Shown: positions 7,156-18,611, counted from the first letter of the stretch. The stretch: 24,000 nucleotides of DNA from Staphylococcus sp. IVB6181 (GCF_025561445.1 NZ_CP095096.1:141822-165821); one strand, 5' to 3'. The notes: generated by a model not told the origin, from the letters alone. Numbers and translations: made by a program.

Positions 7156-8517
7156 ATGGCAGAATTAACTTATGAAAATATTCATGATTTTTATCATAAA
7201 CATAAAGGACAAGATAATGTAGAAGTGCTTCAGAGCATGTCACGCTTAGATTTAATCGGCTTTCTTGCGACATTTTACCAATTGAAAAATCAAGTCAAAG
7301 CTTTAGAAGATGAATATGAAGCTTTATTGATTGAAAATGAAGAACAAAAATCAATAATGGCATCAGATATTGAGCAAAAGTATCAACAAAGTAAGCAAGT
7401 TATATATGATGATTATGTAGAACAAAAACAAAAGGGAAGTTTTCTTCAATCTCATTTGAATCAAAATGGACTTTTAAAATCCTATTTATGGATAGCACTC
7501 ATTAGTACAGTGATTACAACGATAGTAGGTTCTATCTTCATAAACTTTATCGTGGCGATGCTTGGAGGAAGACCTATATTGATGAAAGAAGCCTTTTTCC
7601 TTGTTGTGACAAGTTTAATTTATAGTTTTGTGATTAACTTGATACTCGTCATGACCCCATTAAAATCGAAACAGGATTGGCGTACCAAGCATCAAACAAC
7701 GCTTTTGAGAGGGAGTTCGATTGTTTTAGCAGCAGTGCTTGCTTTCCTTCCGATGGTCGTCATTACAATAATAGGCGGTGAAGCTTCGGACATGATTAAG
7801 TCCTTTACACAAATTTTATTCATGTTTGTAATTGTGCCGCTATTTATTTTAAGTTGGCTATGCCACTATATATTAAGTCATATTGTACCTAAGCATAATG
7901 AAGGAGTAACACAGCGTTATTATAAAGAGGCAGCTAAACGCTATCCTGATAATCAGCTTCGAGAACAACTCACTGTCAATCAAAGCTTAGCACAATTAGA
8001 TCAAGACTTTTATCAAACGCAACAAGATATTGAGACGAATCCTAAATTTAGTGAAAATCTACCTCAATTACAAGAAAAGCTAGACTTACTGTCTAACTTC
8101 ATCCCAATTAAATTTCAATCTGATGAATTATTAGCTGAGTTAGTGGCACATTTAAGTGAAGGGTATGCGGAAAACTGGAAAGAGGCCATTAAAGAAGCAA
8201 GAAATGAATCACACCATAGAGAAATCAGCAGTTACTTAGCCTCTTTGCATGATACGCTCAATCGTTTCTACCAAGACTCCGTGCGTTACTATCAAAATTC
8301 TATGCGAAATCAGCAACAAATCAATCAAACGCTTCAAGGCACACAAGTCTTATTGTCAGAAGTCAATCAACAAGCAGCTGAAACCACTGACGCCATAAAC
8401 CATTTACGTAACAAAATGGATAATAACCATCGTCAACAGCAAGCATTGATCCAGAACATTGACCAAGAAGTGATGCTTCTCACGTCAAATCGAAAAGTGC
8501 GTATATATTTAGTTTAA
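7156..8517 (+). CDS. Hypothetical polytopic membrane protein with N- and C-terminal coiled-coil/Q-rich regions
   Basis: 453 aa with a GGAGTGAG Shine-Dalgarno sequence. Hydrophobic core at about aa 105-235 (4-5 TM segments), flanked by heptad-like charged/Q-rich segments. Has its own terminator. No recognisable catalytic motif. Confidence 0.6.
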   Translation: MAELTYENIHDFYHKHKGQDNVEVLQSMSRLDLIGFLATFYQLKNQVKALEDEYEALLIENEEQKSIMASDIEQKYQQSKQVIYDDYVEQKQKGSFLQSHLNQNGLLKSYLWIALISTVITTIVGSIFINFIVAMLGGRPILMKEAFFLVVTSLIYSFVINLILVMTPLKSKQDWRTKHQTTLLRGSSIVLAAVLAFLPMVVITIIGGEASDMIKSFTQILFMFVIVPLFILSWLCHYILSHIVPKHNEGVTQRYYKEAAKRYPDNQLREQLTVNQSLAQLDQDFYQTQQDIETNPKFSENLPQLQEKLDLLSNFIPIKFQSDELLAELVAHLSEGYAENWKEAIKEARNESHHREISSYLASLHDTLNRFYQDSVRYYQNSMRNQQQINQTLQGTQVLLSEVNQQAAETTDAINHLRNKMDNNHRQQQALIQNIDQEVMLLTSNRKVRIYLV

Positions 8518-8628: not shown

Positions 8629-9702
8629 ATGTCTTGCACAACAGAGTTGTTGGAGGCTTTAGTAGAGTTTAATAGTGCGAATCAAGCTATGGCGAATAAG
8701 ACAATCGATTTTTGCGAACAATGGCTGAAAGACAAAGGATTAGAAGCTGAAGTGCTAATCAATGAAGGGTATAAGATGCTGGTTTGTACAGTAGGTAAAG
8801 GTGAACAGAAGATAATTTTCAATGGACATGTGGATGTGGTAAGCGGTGAACCATATCAATTTCAGCCTGAAGTAAAGGATGACAAAATGTATGGACGCGG
8901 AACTGCAGATATGAAAGGCGGACTTTCTGCCATGATGGCAGCCATCACTGAGTTGAGTACATTAGACTTAGGCAATACCTCAGTTCAGCTGCATATTGTG
9001 TCTGATGAAGAAACCGGAGGTAACTTCTGTACTTCTTATTTAGTCGATAACGGTTATTTAGGCGACTTTGCGATTTGCGGTGAACCTACGCAATTAGGTG
9101 TAGGCTATAAAGCAAAAGGTGTTTTGCAAATGGATATGTTCTTTGAAGGCAAACCTGCACACGGCAGCAGGCCGTGGGAAGGTGACAATGCGATCATAAA
9201 AGCTTTTAAGACATATGAAGCTATAAAAGAACTGCCGTTCGCAAAAGTTTCGAGTGATTTATATGATGCCCCTTCAATCAATCTTGCTAAAATACTCGGC
9301 GGTGATGCTTATAATAAAGTACCGCAAAAGTGTGAGATGAATGTTGATATACGCTATTTGCCAGAACAATCCAGTGCAGAGATACTTGAAGAAATAAAAG
9401 AGATTACAGATGCCAACGTCAAGATTCATTATGAAGCTGTGCCGGTTAATAATGATATTGAAAGCAAGCCTATGCAGCTAATGCTAAGTTGTATCGAAGC
9501 AGCAACCCATTCTTCACCAAAAGTCTTCGGTCAGCATGGTACTTCTGATGCGGCTTATTATTTAAAACATGATGTACCAGCAATAGAGTTCGGACCTTCT
9601 GGTTCAGATTGGCATGGGGAAGGGGAGTATGTTGAACTGAAATCTATAGAATCATACCAAACAATTCTCGTTAATTTCGTACAAAGCTTCAGCCGAAAAT
9701 AA
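8629..9702 (+). CDS. M20-family metallopeptidase/deacylase (ArgE/DapE-like)
   Basis: 357 aa. Metal-binding motifs NGHVDVV, GRGTADMKGG and VSDEETGG. Shine-Dalgarno sequence TAGGAGGGG. Confidence 0.88.
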   Translation: MSCTTELLEALVEFNSANQAMANKTIDFCEQWLKDKGLEAEVLINEGYKMLVCTVGKGEQKIIFNGHVDVVSGEPYQFQPEVKDDKMYGRGTADMKGGLSAMMAAITELSTLDLGNTSVQLHIVSDEETGGNFCTSYLVDNGYLGDFAICGEPTQLGVGYKAKGVLQMDMFFEGKPAHGSRPWEGDNAIIKAFKTYEAIKELPFAKVSSDLYDAPSINLAKILGGDAYNKVPQKCEMNVDIRYLPEQSSAEILEEIKEITDANVKIHYEAVPVNNDIESKPMQLMLSCIEAATHSSPKVFGQHGTSDAAYYLKHDVPAIEFGPSGSDWHGEGEYVELKSIESYQTILVNFVQSFSRK

Positions 9703-9832
9703 AAAAGAATGAAAAAATCTTAGGAAATTAAAAACAGTATAAGCCTTGTCAAATCAACACTTGTTACACGACCGTCACTCTTACTTCAGACAAACGGCAG
9801 TCTGACCTTTGGGTTTAAAATATTACTCTAAG

Positions 9833-9877
9833 CTAAAAAAGGAAGTATCGTTACCTAAATATAGGTATTGATACTTC
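9833..9877 (-). terminator. Intrinsic terminator downstream of the NERD gene
   Basis: Stem GAAGTATC (9842-9849) / GATACTTC (9870-9877) with inner TACCTA/TAGGTA pairing. On the minus strand the hairpin is followed by CTTTTTT. Confidence 0.6.
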
Positions 9878-9952
9878 AAGCTTTGTTTGTATTAAAAAGA
9901 AGAAAGAGGAAGGTAGTTATATTTATGTGATTATTATTGGTAGAGCATTGGG

Positions 9953-10684
9953 TTAGTGGATATTAATAATTGTTGCATCGTTATTAGCAAATTTATTCAA
10001 GGTCTCACAATGAGACATAATTGTGGCACTGTCCATATTTTTACGTGACTTGTTTCTTTGGATTTTCTTTCGGATTATCGTGCTCAATTCTTGTTCTGAT
10101 GAAGGTGTTTCAACATACTTATAAGCATTGCCGACGAATAGTTCACCTTCTCCCCTATGGTTAAAATAAATAATGTTTTCGATGAAGTCAGTTTTTAGTA
10201 CACTTTGGCAAAATGTTGTAGATTTCATTACTTGTTGGAAGGGATGTCCATATTTTTTGAATTGAAATTGATTGTTTTCATTACAAAGTATAAAGGTCAT
10301 ATAACTATCATCGTTGTCAGTGAATAAGTATTTTTTCAAACCATCAAGATTATAGTCTTTTAAATTATCTTTGTGGAAGTTAAAGTAAATATCGCCTTTC
10401 CAATGTTTGGTTTCTATTGCAAAGAAACCATGATCACAGATGACAAAGTGATCTACTTGATGAATTTCTTCTTCATTTTCAACAATAATATTATTATATA
10501 TTGCATAGTTTTTTATAAGCTTTTCTTCTTTTAAATTGAGAAATAACTTTTGCAGATGATTACTTGTTATTTGCTCTCCGATATTGAGTGATGACTGTAA
10601 CAAGTGTTCAAGTGTTTTCACCTTTTTATTTAGCTGTGTGTTTTGCTGCTGGAGTGATTCTAGTGAATTGTTGTGCATAGGCAT
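9953..10684 (-). CDS. NERD (nuclease-related domain) protein with N-terminal coiled coil
   Basis: 243 aa. NERD / PD-(D/E)xK-like core VDHFVICDHGFFAIETKHWKG. Shine-Dalgarno sequence GGAGGGA 5 nt upstream of the ATG. Divergent from the helicase operon. Confidence 0.75.
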   Translation of the reverse strand: MPMHNNSLESLQQQNTQLNKKVKTLEHLLQSSLNIGEQITSNHLQKLFLNLKEEKLIKNYAIYNNIIVENEEEIHQVDHFVICDHGFFAIETKHWKGDIYFNFHKDNLKDYNLDGLKKYLFTDNDDSYMTFILCNENNQFQFKKYGHPFQQVMKSTTFCQSVLKTDFIENIIYFNHRGEGELFVGNAYKYVETPSSEQELSTIIRKKIQRNKSRKNMDSATIMSHCETLNKFANNDATIINIH

Positions 10685-10830
10685 GTATTCCCTCCGTAGT
10701 TAATAGTATTATAGAAAAAGTTTTTTGCAATAGTGTTTAATTACAAAAGTACAATGATACAATAGGGGTTGCATACAATTATTTGACCATCTGATTTAGT
10801 TCAAAGCTATTATGAATGGGAGGAGTTAAA

Positions 10831-12360
10831 GTGTCAATACCAAAGCTGATTGGACATCAAACTGAAATTCTATATGTGCCAGATAATCAAAACATGGTAA
10901 TTACTGGTAGTGCTGGATGTGGTAAATCATTATTAGCTATTTATCGTATTTATTGGCTCTCTAAAAAGTATCCAACAGAAAGCATAGTATTGTTAACCTT
11001 TAATAGAGCAGTTAACGATGATATGAATCGTAAACTAAAATACTTAGCAGAGCAATGGGGAGATGGGTTACCTCAGAATTTGACAATAATGACCTATCAT
11101 AAATTTATGAGAGAAGTATTACAGAAATTAGTTGCAAATTACTCTGACAGATACTATGAATTGAACAAATACATAGGTTCAAAAAAATTGATACCTTACA
11201 ATAGTAATAGGAATGTACAAATTAAAGCAGCATTAGAAAAAGTTAAAGAAAAATATAGTGATGAAGATGAAAGTACGTTTAATCGCCCATTACAAACATT
11301 TATTGATGAAGTAATTTGGCTACAACAAATGTCAGTGGATTCATATGAGATGTATGAAGAAATGGAACGCATTGGCAGAAGAGGGACACGTGTAGAGCGG
11401 TCTAAACGCAAATATTTTTATGAAGTATATGAAGCGTATTTAGGGATAAGACAAGAGGAAAATCGTTATTTTGATTTTGAAGATATTGGATCGATAATTT
11501 GTAAAATTATTGAAAAGCTCAAAGATGAACCTAATATTGAAACACTTACGAGTTATAAGTATATATTAGTGGATGAGTTTCAAGATTTTACTTCGGATAT
11601 GTTGAAAACAGTTAATGTATTAAGTGATAGCACAGGAGCAATGGTTCTATTGGGAGATATTAATCAAGGTGTATTCGGAAAAAGGATCTCTTATAAGTCT
11701 TTAGGTATAGATATGAGGAGTTATAAAAAGTATCAGCTCAATCAAAATTATCGAAATAGTAAGCCAATTAGTGAGTTTGCATTGAAACTATCTCAATCTA
11801 AGTATTTTGATAAAAGTAATGAGTTCTATGCAGAGGCTAAACTAGGGGTTGGAGAAGGACCTAAACCTAAAATTATGAAGTACGATAACGAAAGCGACGA
11901 ACTAACAATGATGTATCAGTTTCTTTCAAGTAATACCATTCAGCAGACGGATAGAAGTGTTTGTGTCATTTTACCAACAATCAAAGCACAAGAATTTACA
12001 GGTTATATGAAACATCATGGGCTAAATGTAGTGAGTGTTAAAGATAAAAATAAATTTGAAATAAGTAAATTATTCTATGGAACATATCGAGAAATAAAAG
12101 GTCTGGAGTTTGATATTGTCATTATGCCATTTTTAAGCGAATCTATATTTATTGAAAGTATTATGAATGACAACAAAGAACTTGAAATTGATAAAGATGA
12201 TTGGGACTTAGAAGATATAGACGATGAAATTTTAGAGGCATATATTGCTCAATATTATGTCGGTGTAACGCGTGCTAAGGAAAAGTTAGTGATTATTCAT
12301 TCAGGAAATAGAACTCCACTTATGCCTGAAGATTTATTTGGTGAATATGTTGAAGAATAG
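10831..12360 (+). CDS. UvrD/PcrA/Rep-like SF1A helicase
   Basis: Motifs present: Walker A GSAGCGKS, Ia LLTFNRAV, II YILVDEFQDFT, III LLGDINQGVF, IV LNQNYRNS, V EIKGLEFDIVIM, VI YVGVTRAKEKLVII. The GTG at 10831 sits 5 nt after GGGAGGAG. The ORF-track ATG at 10816 lies inside that Shine-Dalgarno sequence, so it is less likely to be the start. Confidence 0.88.
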   Translation: MSIPKLIGHQTEILYVPDNQNMVITGSAGCGKSLLAIYRIYWLSKKYPTESIVLLTFNRAVNDDMNRKLKYLAEQWGDGLPQNLTIMTYHKFMREVLQKLVANYSDRYYELNKYIGSKKLIPYNSNRNVQIKAALEKVKEKYSDEDESTFNRPLQTFIDEVIWLQQMSVDSYEMYEEMERIGRRGTRVERSKRKYFYEVYEAYLGIRQEENRYFDFEDIGSIICKIIEKLKDEPNIETLTSYKYILVDEFQDFTSDMLKTVNVLSDSTGAMVLLGDINQGVFGKRISYKSLGIDMRSYKKYQLNQNYRNSKPISEFALKLSQSKYFDKSNEFYAEAKLGVGEGPKPKIMKYDNESDELTMMYQFLSSNTIQQTDRSVCVILPTIKAQEFTGYMKHHGLNVVSVKDKNKFEISKLFYGTYREIKGLEFDIVIMPFLSESIFIESIMNDNKELEIDKDDWDLEDIDDEILEAYIAQYYVGVTRAKEKLVIIHSGNRTPLMPEDLFGEYVEE

Positions 12361-12370
12361 GAGGTAAAAA

Positions 12371-13072
12371 ATGTTTGAATCAATTTTAAAAGAGCGTGAA
12401 ATTACGAGATTATGTCACTTCACTAAATCTAAAAACTTACCTTTTATTTTAGGTGAAGGCATAGATAGTGACGATGGTATTCTAGCGAACAATTTTATAT
12501 CTGATACTTCCTTTCTCGATAAAACAGATAAAGATAGATATGATAAGCATGAAGATTACATATGCACTTCTGTGCAGTATCCGAACTGCTATTATTTTTC
12601 ATCAGTATTAAAGAGAAGTATTAATCAGATTTTTAATGAATGGGTTATTTTATTAATAGATCCAAAAGTTATTGATCAAACTACTAAATTTTGTTCGGTT
12701 AATGCTGCTACGAAAGGGGGAACATTAATAGAAAAGGGTCCTGAAGCATTAGAAAAAATGTTTGATGAAGTAGTAGTAGGAAAAACCGACTTTTATAGAC
12801 CAGATAGTTATCCAGATAATACCCCGACTAATATACAAGGTGAAGTATTGGTATACAAAAAAGTAGCAAAAGAAGATATTATTGGACTTGTCTTTCCAAC
12901 TGATAAAATTGCTGAGAATGAATGTTTACGGTTAGAACTTTGTGGTGTGAATATCAAAGATTATGATATTGTTTCGTCCAGCGATTTATTTGAAAAGAAA
13001 GAAGTGGTGAAATTATTAAAAAAAGGTGAGTTGCCTTATGAAAAGGTGATGAAAATAAGTAATCATGGCTGA
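12371..13072 (+). CDS. DarT/DUF4433-like ADP-ribosyltransferase (putative toxin/effector)
   Basis: 233 aa. The motif order matches the DarT-type ART fold: ITRLCHFTKSKNLPFIL (His16), DYICTSVQYPNCYYF, KFCSVNAAT, and catalytic-type QGEVLVY (Glu158, nt 12842-12844). AGGAGG Shine-Dalgarno sequence. 10-nt gap after the helicase stop. Confidence 0.65.
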   Translation: MFESILKEREITRLCHFTKSKNLPFILGEGIDSDDGILANNFISDTSFLDKTDKDRYDKHEDYICTSVQYPNCYYFSSVLKRSINQIFNEWVILLIDPKVIDQTTKFCSVNAATKGGTLIEKGPEALEKMFDEVVVGKTDFYRPDSYPDNTPTNIQGEVLVYKKVAKEDIIGLVFPTDKIAENECLRLELCGVNIKDYDIVSSSDLFEKKEVVKLLKKGELPYEKVMKISNHG

Positions 13073-13727
13073 TAGATATGTATATTATATAGATAATCAA
13101 AGCTCGAAATTTATGAAAGAAAACATTACATTTCAATGGTATCCTGGATTTGCAAAAAAGCAAAAACAAAAGAGCGTGGTTAGTTTACACGAAGCATTTT
13201 TGTCATGTTTTCCTACCTCCAATGTACTTGAAGTATCGAGTAAATCTACAAATTCGGTGGGGGTTCAGGCAAGTGCATTCAATCTCAGTATTCAGACGGT
13301 AAAAGGACACACATTTACAGTTGAACAATTATTTCAATCTAGTAAAGTTTATAAAAAAGCAGGACGACACAACTATATGTTGAGAGACGGCTATACATCA
13401 CGAGAGATGAAATTAAAATTAAAGCAAATAGACTCAAATGATGTAATGATTAGTTACCACTGCTTCGGAAGAGATTTCAAGTTGGAGCCCAAAACACTTT
13501 TCTATAATTGGTTATATGTTAATGCGTTAACTCAAAATGAAAAACTCGCTAATGAAATTCTAAAATATGATGCGTTTACTGATATAGAATTCAACCCTAA
13601 ACGTTCCTATAATTGTCAGGCAGAAGCATGCTCTATTTATGTTTCACTTGTTAAAAGAGGTTTGTTAAATAAAGCATTAGAGAATTTGGAATCATTTGAA
13701 AGTGTTGTTTATGGTAAAGGTGAGTGA
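13065..13727 (+). CDS. Hypothetical protein translationally coupled to the ART gene (candidate antitoxin/partner); family not recognised
   Basis: 220 aa. Its ATG overlaps the ART stop codon (ATGGCTGA, 8-nt overlap). I could not see any macrodomain, NADAR, PARG or ARH signature. Codon usage is consistent with the neighbouring genes. Confidence 0.6.
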   Translation: MADRYVYYIDNQSSKFMKENITFQWYPGFAKKQKQKSVVSLHEAFLSCFPTSNVLEVSSKSTNSVGVQASAFNLSIQTVKGHTFTVEQLFQSSKVYKKAGRHNYMLRDGYTSREMKLKLKQIDSNDVMISYHCFGRDFKLEPKTLFYNWLYVNALTQNEKLANEILKYDAFTDIEFNPKRSYNCQAEACSIYVSLVKRGLLNKALENLESFESVVYGKGE

Positions 13728-13949
13728 AACTGAAATTTTATGATGAAAGATAATGAAATAGACAAGTAAGACTACGGATCCTTATACAAAATGAGTGGAA
13801 AACATCGTATAAATTTAATCGATATAACATTTCTTTACTTTAAAGGAATTATGATAATTTTAGTAATCTAATTCCAAATAACTTTAATAGAAAAACACAT
13901 TTGGATAACTTAAAAAGACATCCTGACATGGTCAAATAGTAGTTTGAAC

Positions 13950-13983
13950 TGCTCCCTGTCAAGTAGACAGGAAAAAAACAAAA
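13950..13983. repeat. IS terminal inverted repeat (orfB-distal end)
   Basis: TGCTCCCTGTCAAGTAGACAGGAAAAAAACAAAA matches the reverse complement of 15740-15773 at 28/34 positions. Confidence 0.8.
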
Positions 13984-14021
13984 AATAATTTATTGGGAAT
14001 CTGATAAACAAATTTTAAGTT

Positions 14022-14065
14022 ACTGTACAAATGAGTTGATAAATCTCGTTTGTACAGTTTTTTTA
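14022..14065 (+). terminator. Strong intrinsic terminator inside the IS 3' non-coding region, oriented against the transposase genes
   Basis: 14-bp stem ACTGTACAAATGAG (14022-14035) / CTCGTTTGTACAGT (14045-14058), 9-nt loop, then a run of seven T. Confidence 0.75.
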
Positions 14066-14092
14066 TTCTCCTAGCGCACTATCGTTTGCTTG

Positions 14093-14141
14093 ATCTGGTA
14101 AAAAAAGTGGTGCGCTACGCACACTACTTCTTTTACCAGAT
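14093..14141. repeat. Long imperfect hairpin/inverted repeat within the IS, downstream of orfB
   Basis: ATCTGGTAAAAAAAGTGGTGCG - CTA - CGCACACTACTTCTTTTACCAGAT. On the minus strand the inner stem is followed by TTTTTTT, so it may act as the orfB terminator. Confidence 0.5.
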
Positions 14142-14167
14142 TATTTAGGGTAGACATTAGTTAGAAG

Positions 14168-14956
14168 TTAAGCAATTAATCTTTCCATTTCCAAAGTAAT
14201 TCTCTCATTGTTGTAAAAATCAATGTATTCTTTAAACTGCGAGCGTGCAGTTTTTATATCCTTGAATTTATAATGTCTATTACCGCGATAAATTTCTGAT
14301 TTCATTATTCCCCAAAATGATTCCATTGGACTATTATCTATGCATCGTCCGACTCGTGACATGCTTTGAATAACACCTTGCTCATCGAGCAAGAATTTAA
14401 AATGTTTGCTTGTATATTGAAAACCTCTGTCGCTATGTAGTATTAAGCCGCTTATATTTTTCACTTTCTTTAACGCTTTATTGAAAGTATTAAAAACCAG
14501 CTGATTGTTATTTGAATAACTTATATCATAGCTTACAATTTTACCTGTTCCGAGATCTCTGATAGCGCTTAAATAAAATTTCCTTCCATTTTCTAAAATA
14601 AGTTCTGTCACATCTGTTACCCATTTTTTGTTAGCTTCCGTTTCACTAAATTCTCTATCTAATAAATTCTCTGCAGTAATAGTAGGTGTTGAGGGTCTAT
14701 ATCTTTTTCTTGCAGCACGTATGCAAGATTTTAGACCTAATTTTTTCATTAAACGATATACTCGTTTACGACTTACTTTTTTATCCAGTCTTAAACAGAT
14801 ATATATACGAATACGACGATAACCATATTTACCGTTGTATTTATTGAAAATCCACAAGATTTCTTTCATTAATATTTCATCTTCAATTTCACGCTGTGTT
14901 TTAAATTCTCTTCTCTTTCTCCACTTATAATAACTGGCTCTAGAAATTCCAACCAC
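14168..14956 (-). CDS. IS3-family transposase OrfB (rve/DDE catalytic domain), normally made as an OrfAB fusion
   Basis: DDE triad context WVTDVTE, LHSDRGFQYTS, DNSPMESFWGIMKSE. The frame stays open upstream of 14956 to the slippery site at 15064-15070 (..KKVEGERKRADQSPFRQIVEYLVIEDLKNEYPITLLCKVVG..). Confidence 0.9.
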   Translation of the reverse strand: MVGISRASYYKWRKRREFKTQREIEDEILMKEILWIFNKYNGKYGYRRIRIYICLRLDKKVSRKRVYRLMKKLGLKSCIRAARKRYRPSTPTITAENLLDREFSETEANKKWVTDVTELILENGRKFYLSAIRDLGTGKIVSYDISYSNNNQLVFNTFNKALKKVKNISGLILHSDRGFQYTSKHFKFLLDEQGVIQSMSRVGRCIDNSPMESFWGIMKSEIYRGNRHYKFKDIKTARSQFKEYIDFYNNERITLEMERLIA

Positions 14957-15015
14957 CTTACATAACAGAGTTATTGGATATTCATTTTTTAAGTCTTCTA
15001 TTACAAGGTACTCAA

Positions 15016-15720
15016 CTATTTGTCTAAACGGCGATTGATCAGCTCTCTTTCTTTCTCCTTCAACTTTTTTAAAATCTTGTTTTCCATTTCTAAGTATTTG
15101 ATTCTTTCTTCAAGAGCTTTTGTTTTAGCTAATGCTTGTTCTTCATCAGTCATTGTCTGAGTTGGCTTACCTTTACCTCTTCCGTCTACAAGACCGGCAC
15201 TTCCAAATTGTTCATATTTTTTAACCCAACTATATACTTGGCCATAATTAACATTATATTTTAAAGCTGTTTTCTTATAATCTTTTTCTGACTCAATACA
15301 TGCTTCTACTATTTCTACACGTTCTTCGAACGTTGTTTTTCTCGCTTTCATTGAATACACCCCTAGTAATGGAGAATATGAAACATTCTCTTTTCCTAAA
15401 GTATATCGTTTTATCCAATCCCTAACAGTAGAATATGCTGGAATATTATATTTTATTGCTAAATCAACAGCAGAAACACCTTCAGTTAAGTATTCCTGAA
15501 CAATTGTTTCTTTAAATGCTTTACTATAAGTATTATTGCTTTTCTTTGGTAATAGTACCTCAACGCCATGTACTTTATATTGGTGATATTTAAACATCAC
15601 CTGTTTACGATTTAATTCTATACCACTCTTTTCTATAGCTTCATTACAACTATAACCTTCATCTATTAAACTAAATGTTAAGAGAAATAATTTAATGTCA
15701 CTTTCGAGATATTTAGACAT
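15016..15720 (-). CDS. IS3-family transposase OrfA (multi-HTH DNA-binding protein with C-terminal leucine-zipper-like helix)
   Basis: 234 aa. HTH-like segments (SAVDLAIKYNIPAYSTVRDWIKRY; KKTALKYNVNYGQVYSWVKKY) and C-terminal heptads LEERIKYLEMENKILKKLKE. Shine-Dalgarno sequence GGGGGAG. Confidence 0.9.
   Translation of the reverse strand: MSKYLESDIKLFLLTFSLIDEGYSCNEAIEKSGIELNRKQVMFKYHQYKVHGVEVLLPKKSNNTYSKAFKETIVQEYLTEGVSAVDLAIKYNIPAYSTVRDWIKRYTLGKENVSYSPLLGVYSMKARKTTFEERVEIVEACIESEKDYKKTALKYNVNYGQVYSWVKKYEQFGSAGLVDGRGKGKPTQTMTDEEQALAKTKALEERIKYLEMENKILKKLKEKERELINRRLDK
15064..15070 (-). promoter_or_regulatory. Programmed -1 ribosomal frameshift heptamer A_AAA_AAG (orfA to orfB)
   Basis: The minus strand reads ttA AAA AAG in the orfA zero frame. 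A -1 shift here joins in frame to the open orfB frame. Confidence 0.8.
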
Positions 15721-15724
15721 AAGA

Positions 15725-15774
15725 ATGCTCCCCCTATAGTTTTGTTTTTTTAGTGTCTACTATAGGGGGAGCAT
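15725..15774 (-). promoter_or_regulatory. Hairpin pairing the outermost IS terminus with the orfA Shine-Dalgarno region
   Basis: 16-bp perfect stem ATGCTCCCCCTATAGT (15725-15740) / ACTATAGGGGGAGCAT (15759-15774). The arm next to orfA carries the GGGGGAG Shine-Dalgarno sequence on the minus strand. Confidence 0.6.
15740..15773. repeat. IS terminal inverted repeat (orfA-proximal end)
   Basis: Its reverse complement, TGCTCCCCCTATAGTAGACACTAAAAAAACAAAA, matches 13950-13983. Confidence 0.8.
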
Positions 15775-15963
15775 ATCATCATAGGAGTCGGGTGCTTTAT
15801 TTTATGGAATTACTACATGTTTAAGGAGAGAGATTTGTAAGGAAAAAAGAGATGATAATTATTCAGGTAATGGAAAATATTATATAATTATAAAGAGTAA
15901 AGATTTAATGGTGAGCAGGCTAAAATATCTAGGTCTATACGGGATTAGACTTTCAAAAATAAG

Positions 15964-15992
15964 TTGAAAAAACTATAAGGAAAGTGTATGTT
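15964..15992 (+). promoter_or_regulatory. Possible sigma-A promoter of the toxSAS-PanA module
   Basis: TTGAAA (15964-15969), 17-nt spacer, TATGTT (15987-15992), about 45 nt upstream of the ATG at 16036. Pattern match only. Confidence 0.3.
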
Positions 15993-16035
15993 TTTAACAA
16001 TGGTTAAGCTTAATTTACAGTTTGGATGAGGGCAA

Positions 16036-16703
16036 ATGTATACTGGGTATTTTAATGTTATTTGCAAATTAGTCTCTTTGTTACTGCGTTGTCAAAATGA
16101 ATATACCGAAAAGTTTTTAAATAATTATACTACTACTTACAATTTGAAAAAGTATTGTGTGTATAAAATTATTGATAAAAAGAGTGAAGAATATATTTTT
16201 GATTGGAATTTCCTAACTTATCTCAATGGATATTGTGATAAGTTAATAGAAGTACAAATTGAACTTGAAGAAGAAATTGGAAATCACTTCAAAATAAGTA
16301 TAGATAGTAGAGTTAAGCAACCAGAATCAAGGTTGTCTAAACTGTTAGTGTATAGGTTTGAAAAGATGAAAAAGGAAAGACACCATTACGTAAATGTTTA
16401 AATGACTTGTTTGGATGCAGGTTAATTTTAGATATTTCTAATTTGGAAGATTTTTTTGAACAACTAAACAAATATTTAGATAAAACATTAAATATTAAAA
16501 CAACCTATAATGATAAAAACGGGTACAAAGCTGTCCATATTTATTTACGTGGTGAAAATAACAAGTGTTTTCCATGGGAAATACAAATTTGGAATAGCAA
16601 AGATGAAGAAAGTAATAGAGAATCGCATAGTAAATATAAACAAGATTATTTAAAATGGCCCAAAATAGTAAAGGAAATAATTGTGACAAAGGAGGGAAAT
16701 TAA
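16036..16703 (+). pseudogene. RelA/SpoT-homologue small alarmone-synthetase-like toxin (toxSAS), split by a 1-nt frame change in an A5 run
   Basis: ORF 16036-16401 carries SRVKQPESRLSKLL. ORF 16407-16703 carries DLFGCRLILD (when the frame is extended upstream), GYKAVHIYLRG, WEIQIWN and SHSKYK. The two frames overlap at atgAAAAAGg (16366-16375). Adding one base, or a -1 ribosomal slip, gives one protein of about 222 aa. Confidence 0.75.
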
Positions 16704-17450
16704 ATGTTTAAACATTTTCTGTTGATAATACCTGATCATAAACATGGACGTAGGGTTGGATGGCATAAATTAATCACCGCTGCGGATGACTATAAATATA
16801 TAAAACACACTGTGCAAAAGATAACTTCTGAAGTAGGGGGAGCACAACTTGCGTCACATATAATCACTACAGATTCAGATGAAATTAGTTCTATAAAACA
16901 AAAAGACACGTTTTTTTCAGATATTGATTTTTTTGAAAATGAGGATGACTTTATAAATTATTATAAAAATGAAAAAGAACTTACTGCTAATGATGTGGCT
17001 AACTACATTTTAAGTTATGGGAAAAATATTACTCATTTGAAACTACAAAAGTTAACGTATTTGTGTTATGAGAATGTATTAAAAAAATTAAATTTCAAAC
17101 TTTTTGATGATAATATATATGCCTATAAACTTGGTCCTGTAATTGATAGCATATATTCAAGGTATAGAAATGGTGGTAAAGATATATTAGATATTGAAGA
17201 GGATGATAGTATTTACCTTTCTGAAAGTGATTTGTTAATAAAACCGTCCCTAAGCAGAGTATTGTTTTCAGAGAATGGAGTTAAGGTTTTGCAAGTTATT
17301 GATACTACATTAGAAGAATATATTGATTATTCAACGAGTGCATTGGTAAATATTACCCATGAAGAAGGAACTGCTTGGAATAACACATATATAGAAGGCG
17401 TAAAGAATAACATAATATCTGATGAACAGATATTAACAAGTAGTAAATAA
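16704..17450 (+). CDS. Panacea (DUF4065/SocA-like) domain antitoxin, PanA-like
   Basis: 248 aa. Panacea core ANDVANYILSYGKNITHLKLQKLTYLCYE...YAYKLGPVIDSIYSRY. The ATG directly abuts the toxSAS stop (TAAATG), and AAGGAGGG lies within the toxin's 3' end. Confidence 0.75.
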   Translation: MFKHFLLIIPDHKHGRRVGWHKLITAADDYKYIKHTVQKITSEVGGAQLASHIITTDSDEISSIKQKDTFFSDIDFFENEDDFINYYKNEKELTANDVANYILSYGKNITHLKLQKLTYLCYENVLKKLNFKLFDDNIYAYKLGPVIDSIYSRYRNGGKDILDIEEDDSIYLSESDLLIKPSLSRVLFSENGVKVLQVIDTTLEEYIDYSTSALVNITHEEGTAWNNTYIEGVKNNIISDEQILTSSK

Positions 17451-17472
17451 AGTGATTAAATTCATATTTGTA

Positions 17473-17517
17473 AAACCAGCTTCTTCTATATTGAGGAAGT
17501 ATGGTTTTATTTTTTTC
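17473..17517 (+). terminator. Intrinsic terminator after the PanA-like gene
   Basis: Imperfect stem CCAGCTTCTTC / GAGGAAGTATGG with loop TATATT, followed by TTTTATTTTTTT. Confidence 0.6.
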
Positions 17518-17529
17518 TAATTAGTCATT

Positions 17530-17853
17530 GTAGTACTTGGTATGGAAGACTACTTGGCGGTGAAAATTCGTTACAAGTTTGACAGTATGAGCTATTAGTG
17601 AATGACAAGGAAGTCAATCGTGAGGTAGAACCTAAAGGAAGCCGGACGCAAAGACTCGTACTGAGGAACAAAGACTTCATAGAGAAGCCTCATAAAAAGA
17701 AACATATTCCAAAAAATTGAAAAGGAATTTATAGAAGCGCCACAAGAGTTAAAGTATCTATTATATTTTAAGAAACTAAATCATAAAGAAACGCAAGAGT
17801 TGTATGAACTGATGAACAATATATTGTACAAATATAGTAAACATCCCATTTGA
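17530..17853 (+). pseudogene. Decayed MarR-like transcriptional regulator remnant (multiple frame breaks)
   Basis: Frame-hopping translation gives ..RTQRLVL / TEEQRLH.. / KIEKEFIEAPQELKYLLYFKKLNHKETQELYELMNNILYKYSKHPI*. This resembles a MarR wing plus C-terminal helix. No ORF of 60 aa or more is present. Confidence 0.3.
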
Positions 17854-18009
17854 AATGAAGCAGTGTATAAAAGGAATAAGAAGGTATTGTTAGGAAATAC
17901 GATATTTTGTCCGTACTTTAAAAAATTTGAGTTAATAAATAAGGCAGACGGCAAAAGATATGAAAAGAATGCTGCATCCTAAAACAATGTATTATACGCA
18001 CATAAAGTA

Positions 18010-18042
18010 CCCCCTAAAGCTGGATAATGCGACTTTAGGGGG
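18010..18042. terminator. Hairpin downstream of the DUF4870 gene (possibly bidirectional terminator)
   Basis: Perfect 10-bp stem CCCCCTAAAG (18010-18019) / CTTTAGGGGG (18033-18042). The flanking T-tracts are weak. Confidence 0.5.
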
Positions 18043-18071
18043 TAAATTCATTTTTAGGAAATTTTCGAATC

Positions 18072-18437
18072 CTATTTAATAAATCTGATTGATAGTGGTA
18101 CTTCATAGTCTTCGCCTTGATTCGTTTTAACAATAGCGATGATGGAATAAACTGTTGAAGCAATAACAAGAATCGGAAGGATGAGGAATCCAATCAATAT
18201 GAAACAAAGCAATGTGGCTGCGATTCCGTAAATAAAATAACTGATAACGTAATTCCAATAGTTTTTACCTTGTTGATTGATGAAAGGAGATTCATCCTTT
18301 TTGATAAGCCAGATGATGAGCGGGCCGATCAATCCAGTGAAAATGTTTAAAAGCCATAGTAGCATGGCCATTGTTCGTTCTTCTTGAGGAACAGGTTGAA
18401 ATGCATTTTTTTGTGTTGAACTGTTAATTAGATCCAT
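18072..18437 (-). CDS. DUF4870-family small membrane protein
   Basis: Typical DUF4870 pattern ERTMAMLLWLLNIFTGLIGPLIIWLIKKDESPFINQQGKNYWNYVISY with 3 TM segments. The ATG at 18437 has an AGGTGA Shine-Dalgarno sequence 5 nt upstream; the GTG at 18446 has none. Confidence 0.8.
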   Translation of the reverse strand: MDLINSSTQKNAFQPVPQEERTMAMLLWLLNIFTGLIGPLIIWLIKKDESPFINQQGKNYWNYVISYFIYGIAATLLCFILIGFLILPILVIASTVYSIIAIVKTNQGEDYEVPLSIRFIK

Positions 18438-18611
18438 ATTCTTCACCTATATTTTTGTATTTGAGATGTTGAAGTCAGGTTTCTATCTCAAAATAATAAT
18501 CTCACAGTAAAAATAGGTTGTACAGTTAAAATTAGATGGATTTAATGAAGTTTTCGTAAGTTTCGATTGGAAATTAAATTGGATAGATATAGATGAGCAT
18601 GATATAGAGAT

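Follow-up and report, generated by a model that had tools for sequence, protein, structure and literature searches.

Does the cluster of four genes at positions 9,953 to 13,727 of a 24,000-nucleotide stretch of Staphylococcus sp. IVB6181 DNA (the window, as analyzed here) encode a new defense system or a variant of one already described? A first-pass annotation had argued for the former, reading the cluster as a UvrD-like helicase, a DarT-like ADP-ribosyltransferase (ART) and an orphan open reading frame (ORF), with a divergent NERD nuclease gene, that fitted no named system. We found all four ORFs present and intact, with the junctions and motifs that it described, and its AT-rich block was apparent as a GC content of 0.30-0.33 across positions ~9500-18500, a block that holds all four ORFs, compared to 0.36-0.44 in the flanks. 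The features are:

9953-10684, minus strand: NERD-domain protein, 243 aa (PF08378)
10685-10830, no strand: divergent intergenic region, presumed to hold the NERD and operon promoters and the helicase ribosome-binding site (sequence reading)
10831-12360, plus strand: DarH-like compact UvrD/HelD-type SF1 helicase/ATPase, 509 aa (PF00580/PF13361)
12371-13072, plus strand: DarT toxin of the DarT1 type, 233 aa, a predicted ssDNA ADP-ribosyltransferase (PF14487)
13065-13727, plus strand: DarT1-associated NADAR antitoxin of the DarG1 type, 220 aa (PF22397)

Direct reading of the sequence placed the helicase stop codon TAG in overlap with an AGGAGG Shine-Dalgarno motif and the DarT ATG 10 nt beyond that stop, and the DarT stop and the ATG of the 220-aa ORF overlap by 8 nt (ATGGCTGA), both as annotated before. 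The NERD gene indeed diverges from the same intergenic region as the helicase, which spans 131-146 bp depending on the helicase start (10831 or 10816). Here, the annotated GTG at 10831 is the better choice over the longest-ORF ATG at 10816, as it is preceded by GGAGGAG at 10819-10825, homologues start there with MSIP or MSLP, and the product is annotated as 509 aa in other assemblies. Because promoter-like hexamers in the divergent region were no more common than in shuffled sequence (22 found versus 24.5 expected), we assigned no promoter within 10685-10830. Between the operon genes, no convincing terminator was found, and a weak 5-bp stem inside darT was not treated as functional. The operon's low-GC island also carries a toxSAS-Panacea pair and is adjoined by an IS3-family element, and the downstream flank of the operon differs from strain to strain.

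The ORF previously called an orphan proved to be a NADAR, a canonical DarT partner. It matched PF22397 (NADAR-DarT1) with an E-value of 2.6e-72 over profile positions 1-211 of 212 and the Geobacter lovleyi NADAR 8BAT with 1e-52. In 17 homologues, its residues E87, K94, K116, and D173 never vary, and they are spaced like the catalytic E88, K95, K115, and D171 of E. coli C7 NADAR. In a Pfam search, the third gene gave no PF03747 match, and a macrodomain was found in none of the four proteins. Judged by sequence, the product is a NADAR antitoxin of the DarT1-associated kind at full length, and the ART and the ORF are therefore a known toxin-antitoxin pair, DarT1-NADAR (DarTG1), which acts by guanine-specific, reversible ADP-ribosylation in E. 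coli C7 and Geobacter lovleyi (Schuller et al. 2023, PMC11543638) and which, as PMC11257639 states, gives phage defense. As in DarTG1, the antitoxin gene lies directly downstream of darT.

The DarT-like ART reading of 12371-13072 was likewise borne out. The protein matched PF14487 (5.4e-14), its sole significant match in the PDB was E. coli C7 DarT1 (8BAQ, 7e-17), with no DarT2 structure matched at E<=1, and in alignment its His16 and Glu158 take the positions of the C7 enzyme's catalytic His and Glu152. Across the active site, H17, F18, R52, D54, S63, F72, N104, and E152 of DarT1 correspond to H16, F17, R56, D58, S67, F76, N111, and E158 of the window DarT. Both the H-S-E arrangement of DarT1 and its Asn that contacts guanine are present. 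With the thymidine-specific DarTG2 (DarT2 plus the macrodomain protein DarG), the window operon shares the PF14487 superfamily and the logic of reversible DNA ADP-ribosylation, but it has no macrodomain protein, an Asn at the base contact (His119 in DarT2), and a Ser as the middle residue of the motif (Tyr in the H-Y-E of DarT2).

While the DarT1 catalytic and base-contact residues are otherwise conserved in all helicase-linked DarTs, the position of Met71, a residue essential in E. coli C7 DarT1 (PMC11543638), is Tyr75 in the window DarT and Tyr or Phe in the helicase-linked DarTs. Owing to the change of Met71 to Tyr, the chemistry or target of the window DarT could differ. The window DarT is 29-32% identical to canonical DarT1, 40-45% to the DarTs linked to ADP-ribosylglycohydrolase (ARH) proteins, and 23% (E 2e-7) to the E. 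coli helicase-linked DarT. Unlike DarTG1, which consists of two genes, the window operon starts with a conserved helicase, and its DarT falls outside the canonical clade, as 172 of 200 bootstraps (86%) set the helicase-linked DarTs apart from the DarT1 of canonical two-gene operons, with poor support for the nodes within the helicase-linked clade.

The helicase matched the Pfam profiles PF00580 (6.5e-25) and PF13361 (2.4e-11), and the full SF1A motif set attributed to it was confirmed, with Walker A, DExQD, GDxxQ, NYRN, KGLEF, and TRA invariant in 15 homologues. Its family profile aligned with PcrA residues 171-394 and 552-622 and left PcrA ~395-551, the 2B region, unmatched; the best PDB match in the profile search, HelD (6WVK, 1.3e-34), spans residues 526-770 without the gap seen against PcrA, HelD being, like the DarH family, without a counterpart of the PcrA 2B segment. 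By this profile alignment, the protein is a compact UvrD/HelD-type helicase without a 2B domain; a single-sequence AF2 model had a pLDDT of 32 and did not confirm this. The analogy to GajB of Gabija that had been drawn for it held as far as the shared SF1A UvrD-family ATPase core, with nothing closer: the profile scored ~1e-34 against HelD, PcrA, and UvrD versus ~1e-12 against GajB. Gabija itself was rejected, as the PADLOC GajB models match the helicase through general UvrD similarity, the PADLOC GajA model was unmatched by any of the four proteins, and the neighbors are NERD, DarT, and NADAR; the operon partner of the helicase is an ART toxin, whereas that of GajB is GajA, an OLD-family ATPase-TOPRIM nuclease.

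Comparison of loci identified the helicase as a conserved operon partner of DarT and no chance neighbor. Each of the close DarT homologues examined, across at least 12 genera, is immediately preceded by a UvrD-like gene encoding 454-524 aa, and the helicase and DarT ORFs often overlap by 4-14 nt, while the genes flanking the operon vary between loci. The contexts covered were those of S. gallinarum, Macrococcus, E. faecalis, Listeria, B. velezensis, Paenibacillus, and a B. cereus prophage; S. pettenkoferi, S. pragensis, Philodulcilactobacillus, and the Streptococcus sanguinis group; and Ralstonia, Streptomyces, Salmonella, and E. coli. The three-gene linkage implied by the annotation was conserved for the helicase and only in part of the loci for NADAR, since the third gene is either a NADAR or an ARH, the latter a PF03747 protein of 527-600 aa. 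Among the loci examined, the NADAR-type triad was found only in Bacilli (Staphylococcaceae, the Streptococcus sanguinis group, and Philodulcilactobacillus). Viewed from the antitoxin, 8 of 51 evaluable DarT-NADAR loci contain the helicase; S. oralis and S. hyointestinalis, close relatives, carry DarT-NADAR without it, and the window's DarT lineage thus does not need the helicase in every case.

A helicase-DarT-antitoxin triad has recently been named DarHTG (Liu-DS3; DarH, DarT, and DarG3; NAR 2026 gkag308; bioRxiv 10.64898/2025.12.08.692795). [quoted passage not shown] We found a helicase-DarT-ARH locus in 21 of 5426 E. coli genomes, which may not be the exact published Liu-DS3 locus. The window operon has the same gene order, with a 2B-less UvrD-like helicase directly upstream of DarT, and the helicases are homologous from end to end, at 28-34% identity (E 1e-66 to 1e-83) to those of helicase-DarT-ARH operons in Enterococcus, Listeria, Bacillus, Paenibacillus, and Ralstonia, and at 22% over 475 aa (E 8e-17 to 1e-15) to that of E. 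coli. The DarTs also lie on one side of the split from canonical DarT1, and the window's helicase and DarT are much closer to those of the ARH-type operons of Firmicutes, Ralstonia, and Streptomyces than to those of E. coli. The operon differs from DarHTG in its 220-aa NADAR antitoxin, DarG3 being an ARH, in the placement of NADAR-type helicases on a monophyletic branch of their own (158 of 200 bootstraps), and in the divergent NERD gene of staphylococci.

The claim that no named system fits thus did not survive: DarT with NADAR is DarTG1, and a helicase with DarT and an antitoxin is DarHTG, named in 2025-26. What remains new is the combination of helicase, DarT, and NADAR, with or without NERD, which was not found in the literature searched; NADAR is nowhere mentioned in the DarHTG paper (gkag308). 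Given its NADAR antitoxin and DarHTG-like gene order, the window holds a NADAR-type DarHTG-like variant that joins two described DarT phage-defense types and is not wholly new.

The inclusion of the NERD gene in the cassette stood in so far as all Staphylococcus loci examined, from seven species and with four kinds of flank, have the gene beside the operon. It adjoins helicase-DarT-NADAR divergently in S. gallinarum, S. pettenkoferi, S. pragensis, S. hominis, and S. petrasii. It was, however, absent beside the helicase-DarT operon in Macrococcus, Streptococcus, Philodulcilactobacillus, and every ARH-type locus examined, and since it occurs in all Staphylococcus loci and in no other genus, it is not a core component. 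The protein matched PF08378 (3.5e-11), and its N-terminal helix precedes a PD-(D/E)xK-like core. D78, E91, and K93 do not vary among 12 homologues, which all come from Staphylococcaceae, the family to which sequence-detectable homologues are restricted; the AF2 model of the protein (pLDDT 71) gave weak Foldseek matches to PD-(D/E)xK nucleases. The most distant homologue, in Mammaliicoccus sciuri, adjoins a different helicase-nuclease gene without DarT, and in one assembly the operon is present with the NERD gene disrupted. An intact D...ExK NERD beside a UvrD-like helicase recalls NERD-UvrD fusions and candidates (PADLOC C3a187) and the NERD N-termini of PglW/MAD6, but the window NERD is a separate, divergent 243-aa protein limited to Staphylococcus versions of the operon. 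The gene probably encodes a lineage-specific accessory, a nuclease or a sensor.

The sequence data establish what the domains are, that the active sites and the synteny are conserved, and how the operon is built, and from these we infer the target base, helicase role, trigger, and phage phenotype. We consider it probable (about 0.7) that the locus encodes a three-part anti-phage module, a DarT toxin-antitoxin system with DarHTG-like architecture, with NADAR (DarG1) instead of ARH (DarG3) as the antitoxin. The defense or abortive-infection role proposed by the first-pass annotation is still the best reading, by analogy with the dependence of the E. coli system on the DarT active site and helicase ATP site. 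DarT would use NAD+ to ADP-ribosylate ssDNA, with guanine N2 as the most likely acceptor in view of the toxin's DarT1-type residues and its pairing with a guanine-specific NADAR, and NADAR would strip the adduct, such that uninfected cells stay viable. DarH, presumably co-translated with DarT and, judging from its distant E. coli homologue, needed for the response, would most likely load on or translocate along phage DNA or replication intermediates and thereby expose ssDNA to DarT or license DarT on foreign DNA, although the helicase could act in repair or regulation rather than targeting. Phage DNA replication would be blocked, resulting in abortive infection or growth arrest, with the divergent NERD as a Staphylococcus-specific accessory outside the core. 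It is unlikely, though conceivable, that staphylococci have a four-component system in which NERD nicks or cuts invading DNA, DarH unwinds there, and DarT ADP-ribosylates guanines of the exposed strand, which, if true, would be a nuclease-primed, helicase-delivered DNA-modifying defense.

The cluster might instead comprise two independent neighbors, a canonical two-gene DarTG1 and a two-gene nuclease-helicase system that is a split form of NERD-UvrD fusions. The PADLOC candidate C3a187 'NERD+UvrD' does match the helicase (1.2e-16, the helicase part only), NERD and helicase have a divergent promoter region in common, the M. sciuri NERD homologue sits beside another helicase-nuclease gene, and 43 of the 51 evaluable DarT-NADAR loci are without a helicase. 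Yet the helicase-DarT operon is kept in every NERD-less genus, often with overlapping stop and start codons, as well as in the assembly with the disrupted NERD gene, and detectable NERD homologues are limited to Staphylococcaceae. The helicase-linked DarTs moreover form their own clade with a Met71 to Tyr/Phe signature, which indicates co-evolution with the helicase. Two separate systems are improbable.

We give similarly little credence to the helicase being a protective or repair factor for the tolerance or removal of ADP-ribosylated DNA, as an additional antitoxin-like layer, or for the HelD-like displacement of stalled complexes. In structural family it matches best with HelD, which recycles RNA polymerase, the added helicase of the related ietHAS system acts like an antitoxin helper, and PMC7003065 describes E. 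coli handling ADP-ribosylated DNA via nucleotide excision repair and RecF pathways; the opposite pattern is seen in E. coli DarHTG, where by analogy a protective role would be disfavored, as the ATP-site mutant is cloneable and loses defense while the antitoxin mutant is unobtainable. Quite improbable, finally, is an addiction, stabilization, or growth-control module of a mobile genomic island without a significant anti-phage role. The low-GC island with its adjacent IS3-family element, second TA-like pair, and strain-variable downstream flank would suit such a module, as would the control of replication and growth by M. tuberculosis DarTG described in PMC12170906, but homologues repeatedly lie amid restriction and defense genes (McrBC, type I R-M, Hachiman, Cap4, RT), with one in the B. 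cereus prophage, and both parent architectures, DarHTG and DarTG1, are experimentally anti-phage. Addiction and defense roles are mutually compatible.

For the family, the helicase partner of the E. coli DarT system appears to be ancient and widespread across a DarT lineage sister to canonical DarT1. Within this lineage the antitoxin has been swapped between ARH and NADAR, hydrolases whose folds are unrelated. As NADAR is guanine-specific, the NADAR-type operon provides a testable handle on the target base of helicase-linked DarTs and also informs which adduct the ARH-type antitoxin must reverse. Since the ARH-linked DarTs keep all DarT1 guanine-type residues at their 40-45% identity to the window DarT, a further prediction, unlikely though conceivable, is that guanine ADP-ribosylation would be reversed by yet a third, unrelated fold, the ARH-type DarG3 of DarHTG. 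The locus further extends the helicase-DarT defense type to staphylococci, where phage-therapy work needs defense inventories, with the Staphylococcus-specific NERD as a candidate additional component. Present PADLOC models barely detect the toxin (7e-6 in PADLOC v2) and miss the antitoxin.

We found an ADP-ribosyltransferase (ART), a NADAR hydrolase and an SF1 ATPase, all intact, in one translationally coupled operon. Our reading of the open reading frames (ORFs) and of the sequence bore out the four ORFs and the junctions of the first-pass annotation, and all four lie in a low-GC block (~9.5-18.5 kb, 0.30-0.33 by window composition):

9953-10684, minus strand, NERD gene
10816/10831-12360, plus strand, helicase gene with two possible starts
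12371-13072, plus strand, DarT gene
13065-13727, plus strand, 220-aa ORF (NADAR)

The divergent NERD and helicase genes are separated by a spacer of ~131-146 bp, and the helicase likely starts at the GTG at 10831, as this codon is preceded by GGAGGAG, homologues start there and the 509-aa product is called in other assemblies. TAGGAGG encloses the helicase stop, with the DarT ATG 10 nt downstream, and the DarT stop overlaps the NADAR ATG (ATGGCTGA). A scan found no convincing terminator among the three plus-strand genes, the sole match being a weak 5-bp stem inside darT. As promoter-like matches were no commoner than expected from shuffled sequence, no promoter was assigned.

The ART and the ORF that follows it form a known pair. 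The proposed DarT-like ART held up, with a Pfam DarT domain (E 5.4e-14) and a single match among solved structures, the E. coli C7 DarT1 8BAQ (E 7e-17); no DarT2 structure matched. The 220-aa ORF, previously described as an orphan, proved to be a full-length NADAR antitoxin, matching PF22397, "DarT1-associated NADAR antitoxin" (E 2.6e-72, 211/212 profile positions), and the Geobacter lovleyi NADAR structure 8BAT (E 1e-52). Together, these matches identify the two genes as a DarT1-NADAR pair, DarTG1, a toxin-antitoxin system that ADP-ribosylates DNA reversibly and is specific for guanine (PMC11543638). Residues H16, F17, R56, D58, S67, F76, N111 and E158 of the window DarT correspond to DarT1 H17, F18, R52, D54, S63, F72, N104 and E152, and among the mapped essential DarT1 residues M71 alone differs, being Y75 here. 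NADAR E87, K94, K116 and D173 are invariant across 17 homologues and are spaced like the catalytic E88, K95, K115 and D171. PADLOC v2 matched DarT weakly (7e-6) and did not detect NADAR, and a tblastn search of DarT against 50,697 phage genomes gave no match.

The helicase carries UvrD N- and C-terminal domains (Pfam, E 6.5e-25 and 2.4e-11), and all SF1 motifs are kept across its family. Upon alignment to PcrA, the family profile covered residues 171-394 and resumed at 552-622, leaving out the 2B domain, which suggests that this domain is absent; the best PDB match of the profile was HelD. A single-sequence AlphaFold2 model (pLDDT 32) was too low in confidence for use. We also considered a Gabija-like reading and rejected it: the GajB match reflected general UvrD similarity, and none of the four proteins matched a GajA model.

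Co-occurrence of helicase and ART, a check proposed earlier, was examined around DarT homologues sharing 36-70% identity with the window protein. In S. gallinarum, Macrococcus equi, Enterococcus faecalis, Listeria, Bacillus velezensis, Paenibacillus graminis and a B. cereus prophage alike, a UvrD-like gene of 454-524 aa lies immediately 5' of darT, often with a 4-14 nt overlap, and the outer flanks of the operon vary. The third gene is a NADAR in Staphylococcus and Macrococcus and a 527-580-aa ADP-ribosylglycohydrolase (ARH, PF03747) in the others. Further helicase-DarT-ARH triads were located on one plasmid each of Streptomyces and Salmonella and on a Ralstonia megaplasmid, and the Salmonella copy recurs at 100% identity in 21/5426 complete E. 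coli chromosomes; a blastn search of E. coli genomes with the Ralstonia triad as query returned nothing, and the E. coli locus was reached via the Salmonella plasmid.

Other genes adjoin some of these operons. McrBC genes lie directly 3' of NADAR in S. gallinarum (locus L001, 9620-12956) and Macrococcus equi (L004, 9385-12482), and in Philodulcilactobacillus (L019, 7675-11254) that position holds two large ORFs, of which one has a PD-(D/E)xK domain. The B. cereus helicase-DarT-ARH operon (L015/L016) sits within a prophage, adjoining genes for an AimR (arbitrium) regulator, a phage repressor and an anti-repressor.

A helicase-DarT-antitoxin system has been published as DarHTG, comprising DarH (a UvrD-like helicase without 2B), DarT and the ARH-like hydrolase DarG3 (NAR 2026, gkag308; preprint December 2025). 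It protects E. coli against T4, T5, T7 and SSL_2009a; defence was lost in DarT active-site and helicase ATP-site mutants, and an antitoxin mutant was not clonable (gkag308). The word NADAR is absent from that paper, and we found no description of a single system made up of DarT, NADAR and a helicase in the literature searched; hence, the window carries a NADAR-type relative of DarHTG, differing from it in having NADAR in place of the ARH-like DarG3. Equivalently, judged from sequence, it is apparently a DarTG1 pair whose toxin comes from the helicase-linked lineage. The first-pass view that no named system fits therefore falls, since DarT with NADAR is DarTG1 and helicase, DarT and antitoxin make up DarHTG; of its interpretation, the helicase coupling to DarT stands, but under a name already given, and the "orphan" ORF does not.

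The window DarT shares 40-45% identity with ARH-linked Firmicute DarTs and 29-32% with canonical DarT1, and the helicase 28-34% with its counterparts in the ARH-type operons of Firmicutes and Ralstonia (E 1e-66 to 1e-83). Against the E. coli ARH-linked proteins, whose locus may differ from the published DarHTG locus Liu-DS3, identity was 23% for DarT and 22% for the helicase (E 1e-15, collinear over the full length). The DarT1-type residues (Ser for DarT2 Tyr, Asn for DarT2 His) are retained by all helicase-linked DarTs, each of which has Tyr or Phe at the position of canonical Met71. In trees built by neighbor joining only (200 bootstrap replicates), canonical two-gene DarT1s, including E. 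coli C7, split from the helicase-linked DarTs and two helicase-less streptococcal relatives (172/200). In the helicase tree, NADAR-type helicases were monophyletic (158/200) and ARH-type helicases clustered (145-158/200). As nodes within the helicase-linked DarT clade were weak, with monophyly of NADAR-linked DarTs at 3/200, these trees do not settle the number of antitoxin exchanges.

We also sampled from the antitoxin side. In the best 80 species-representative genomes by similarity to the window NADAR, darT lies directly 5' of NADAR in 57, and 51 of these loci had enough upstream sequence to judge helicase presence: 43 were plain two-gene DarT-NADAR loci and 8 carried the helicase (3 Staphylococcus, Philodulcilactobacillus and 4 Streptococcus sanguinis-group genomes).

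The other 23 genomes have no recognisable DarT directly 5' of NADAR, most having no DarT at all; they comprise 2 weak DarT fragments, 1 downstream DarT and 1 DarT-NADAR fusion among others, and include loci L035, L037-L039, L050, L051, L059, L060, L065, L067, L070, L071, L075, L076, L079, L083, L090, L092 and L096. NADARs truly without DarT could be orphan antitoxins or partners of a different toxin. An ARH-like gene lies 5' of NADAR in L067, L088 is a single 472-aa DarT-NADAR fusion, and some NADAR-linked DarTs (L046, L047, L062, L068, L091 and L095) have 200-550-aa N-terminal extensions with no Pfam domain. In Streptococcus oralis (L025, 3302-8896), a helicase-less DarT is directly preceded by the two genes of a Hachiman system (HamA, E 1.7e-55, and a DEAD/Helicase_C protein), and the NADAR is a 631-aa fusion with a type I restriction-modification specificity (Methylase_S) domain.

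We read the NERD gene as a lineage-specific accessory. Its product matches Pfam NERD (E 3.5e-11), its 12 sequence-detectable homologues are all from Staphylococcaceae, and D78, E91 and K93 of the PD-(D/E)xK motif are invariant among them. Its proposed membership of the cassette holds in part: the divergent arrangement recurs in S. gallinarum, S. pettenkoferi, S. pragensis, S. hominis and S. petrasii, in differing chromosomal contexts, but NERD is absent beside the operon in Macrococcus, where a WYL protein takes its position, in Streptococcus, in Philodulcilactobacillus and in all ARH-type operons. The most distant homologue (Mammaliicoccus) adjoins a different helicase, PLD-SNF2-DUF3427, and in a metagenome assembly with an identical DarT (L110, 2804-3554) the NERD gene is broken into two ORFs of 190 and 69 aa, through either gene decay or misassembly. 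Foldseek of the AlphaFold2 model (pLDDT 71) against the PDB gave no match at E<=0.001; its weak top matches, the Can2, Card1, Bax1 and R2 nuclease domains, are at most suggestive.

The surrounding DNA holds further elements:

7156-8517, plus strand, 453-aa ORF, no Pfam match
13945-15778, IS3-family element, orfA/orfB at 15016-15720 and 14168-14956 (minus strand), 39-nt terminal inverted repeats 13945-13983 / 15740-15778
16036-17450, plus strand, toxin-antitoxin-like module, the second in the low-GC island
17614-17762, plus strand, group II intron D1-D4 fragment (Rfam RF02001, 39 bits, exceeding the gathering cutoff)

The IS3-family element begins 218 bp after the NADAR stop; of other assemblies of the operon locus, several end just past NADAR and one strain has different downstream genes. 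The first two ORFs of the module, of 121 aa (no Pfam match) and 98 aa (weak RelA_SpoT match, profile positions 38-111), occupy different frames and so resemble a small alarmone synthetase toxin (toxSAS) interrupted by a frameshift; the antitoxin encoded after them has 248 aa and a SocA/Panacea domain (E 6.5e-14). No intron-encoded protein ORF was evident near the intron fragment, and in the otherwise collinear strain L107 the 453-aa ORF does not occur between the genes for the MFS protein and the M20 peptidase.

The linkage of helicase, DarT and antitoxin genes is conserved, and it is improbable that two independent systems simply lie side by side. That the helicase serves as a protective or repair factor we consider just as unlikely, and a pure addiction module of the mobile island slightly less probable still. 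For a NADAR-type relative of DarHTG, we propose that DarT would ADP-ribosylate guanine in ssDNA and that NADAR would undo this modification in uninfected cells. By analogy with E. coli DarHTG, the helicase ATPase would be required for the response; most plausibly, the helicase may engage phage DNA, exposing or marking ssDNA for DarT. Overall, with the helicase-DarT coupling itself already described, what is new is the triad with a NADAR and, in staphylococci, its NERD companion.
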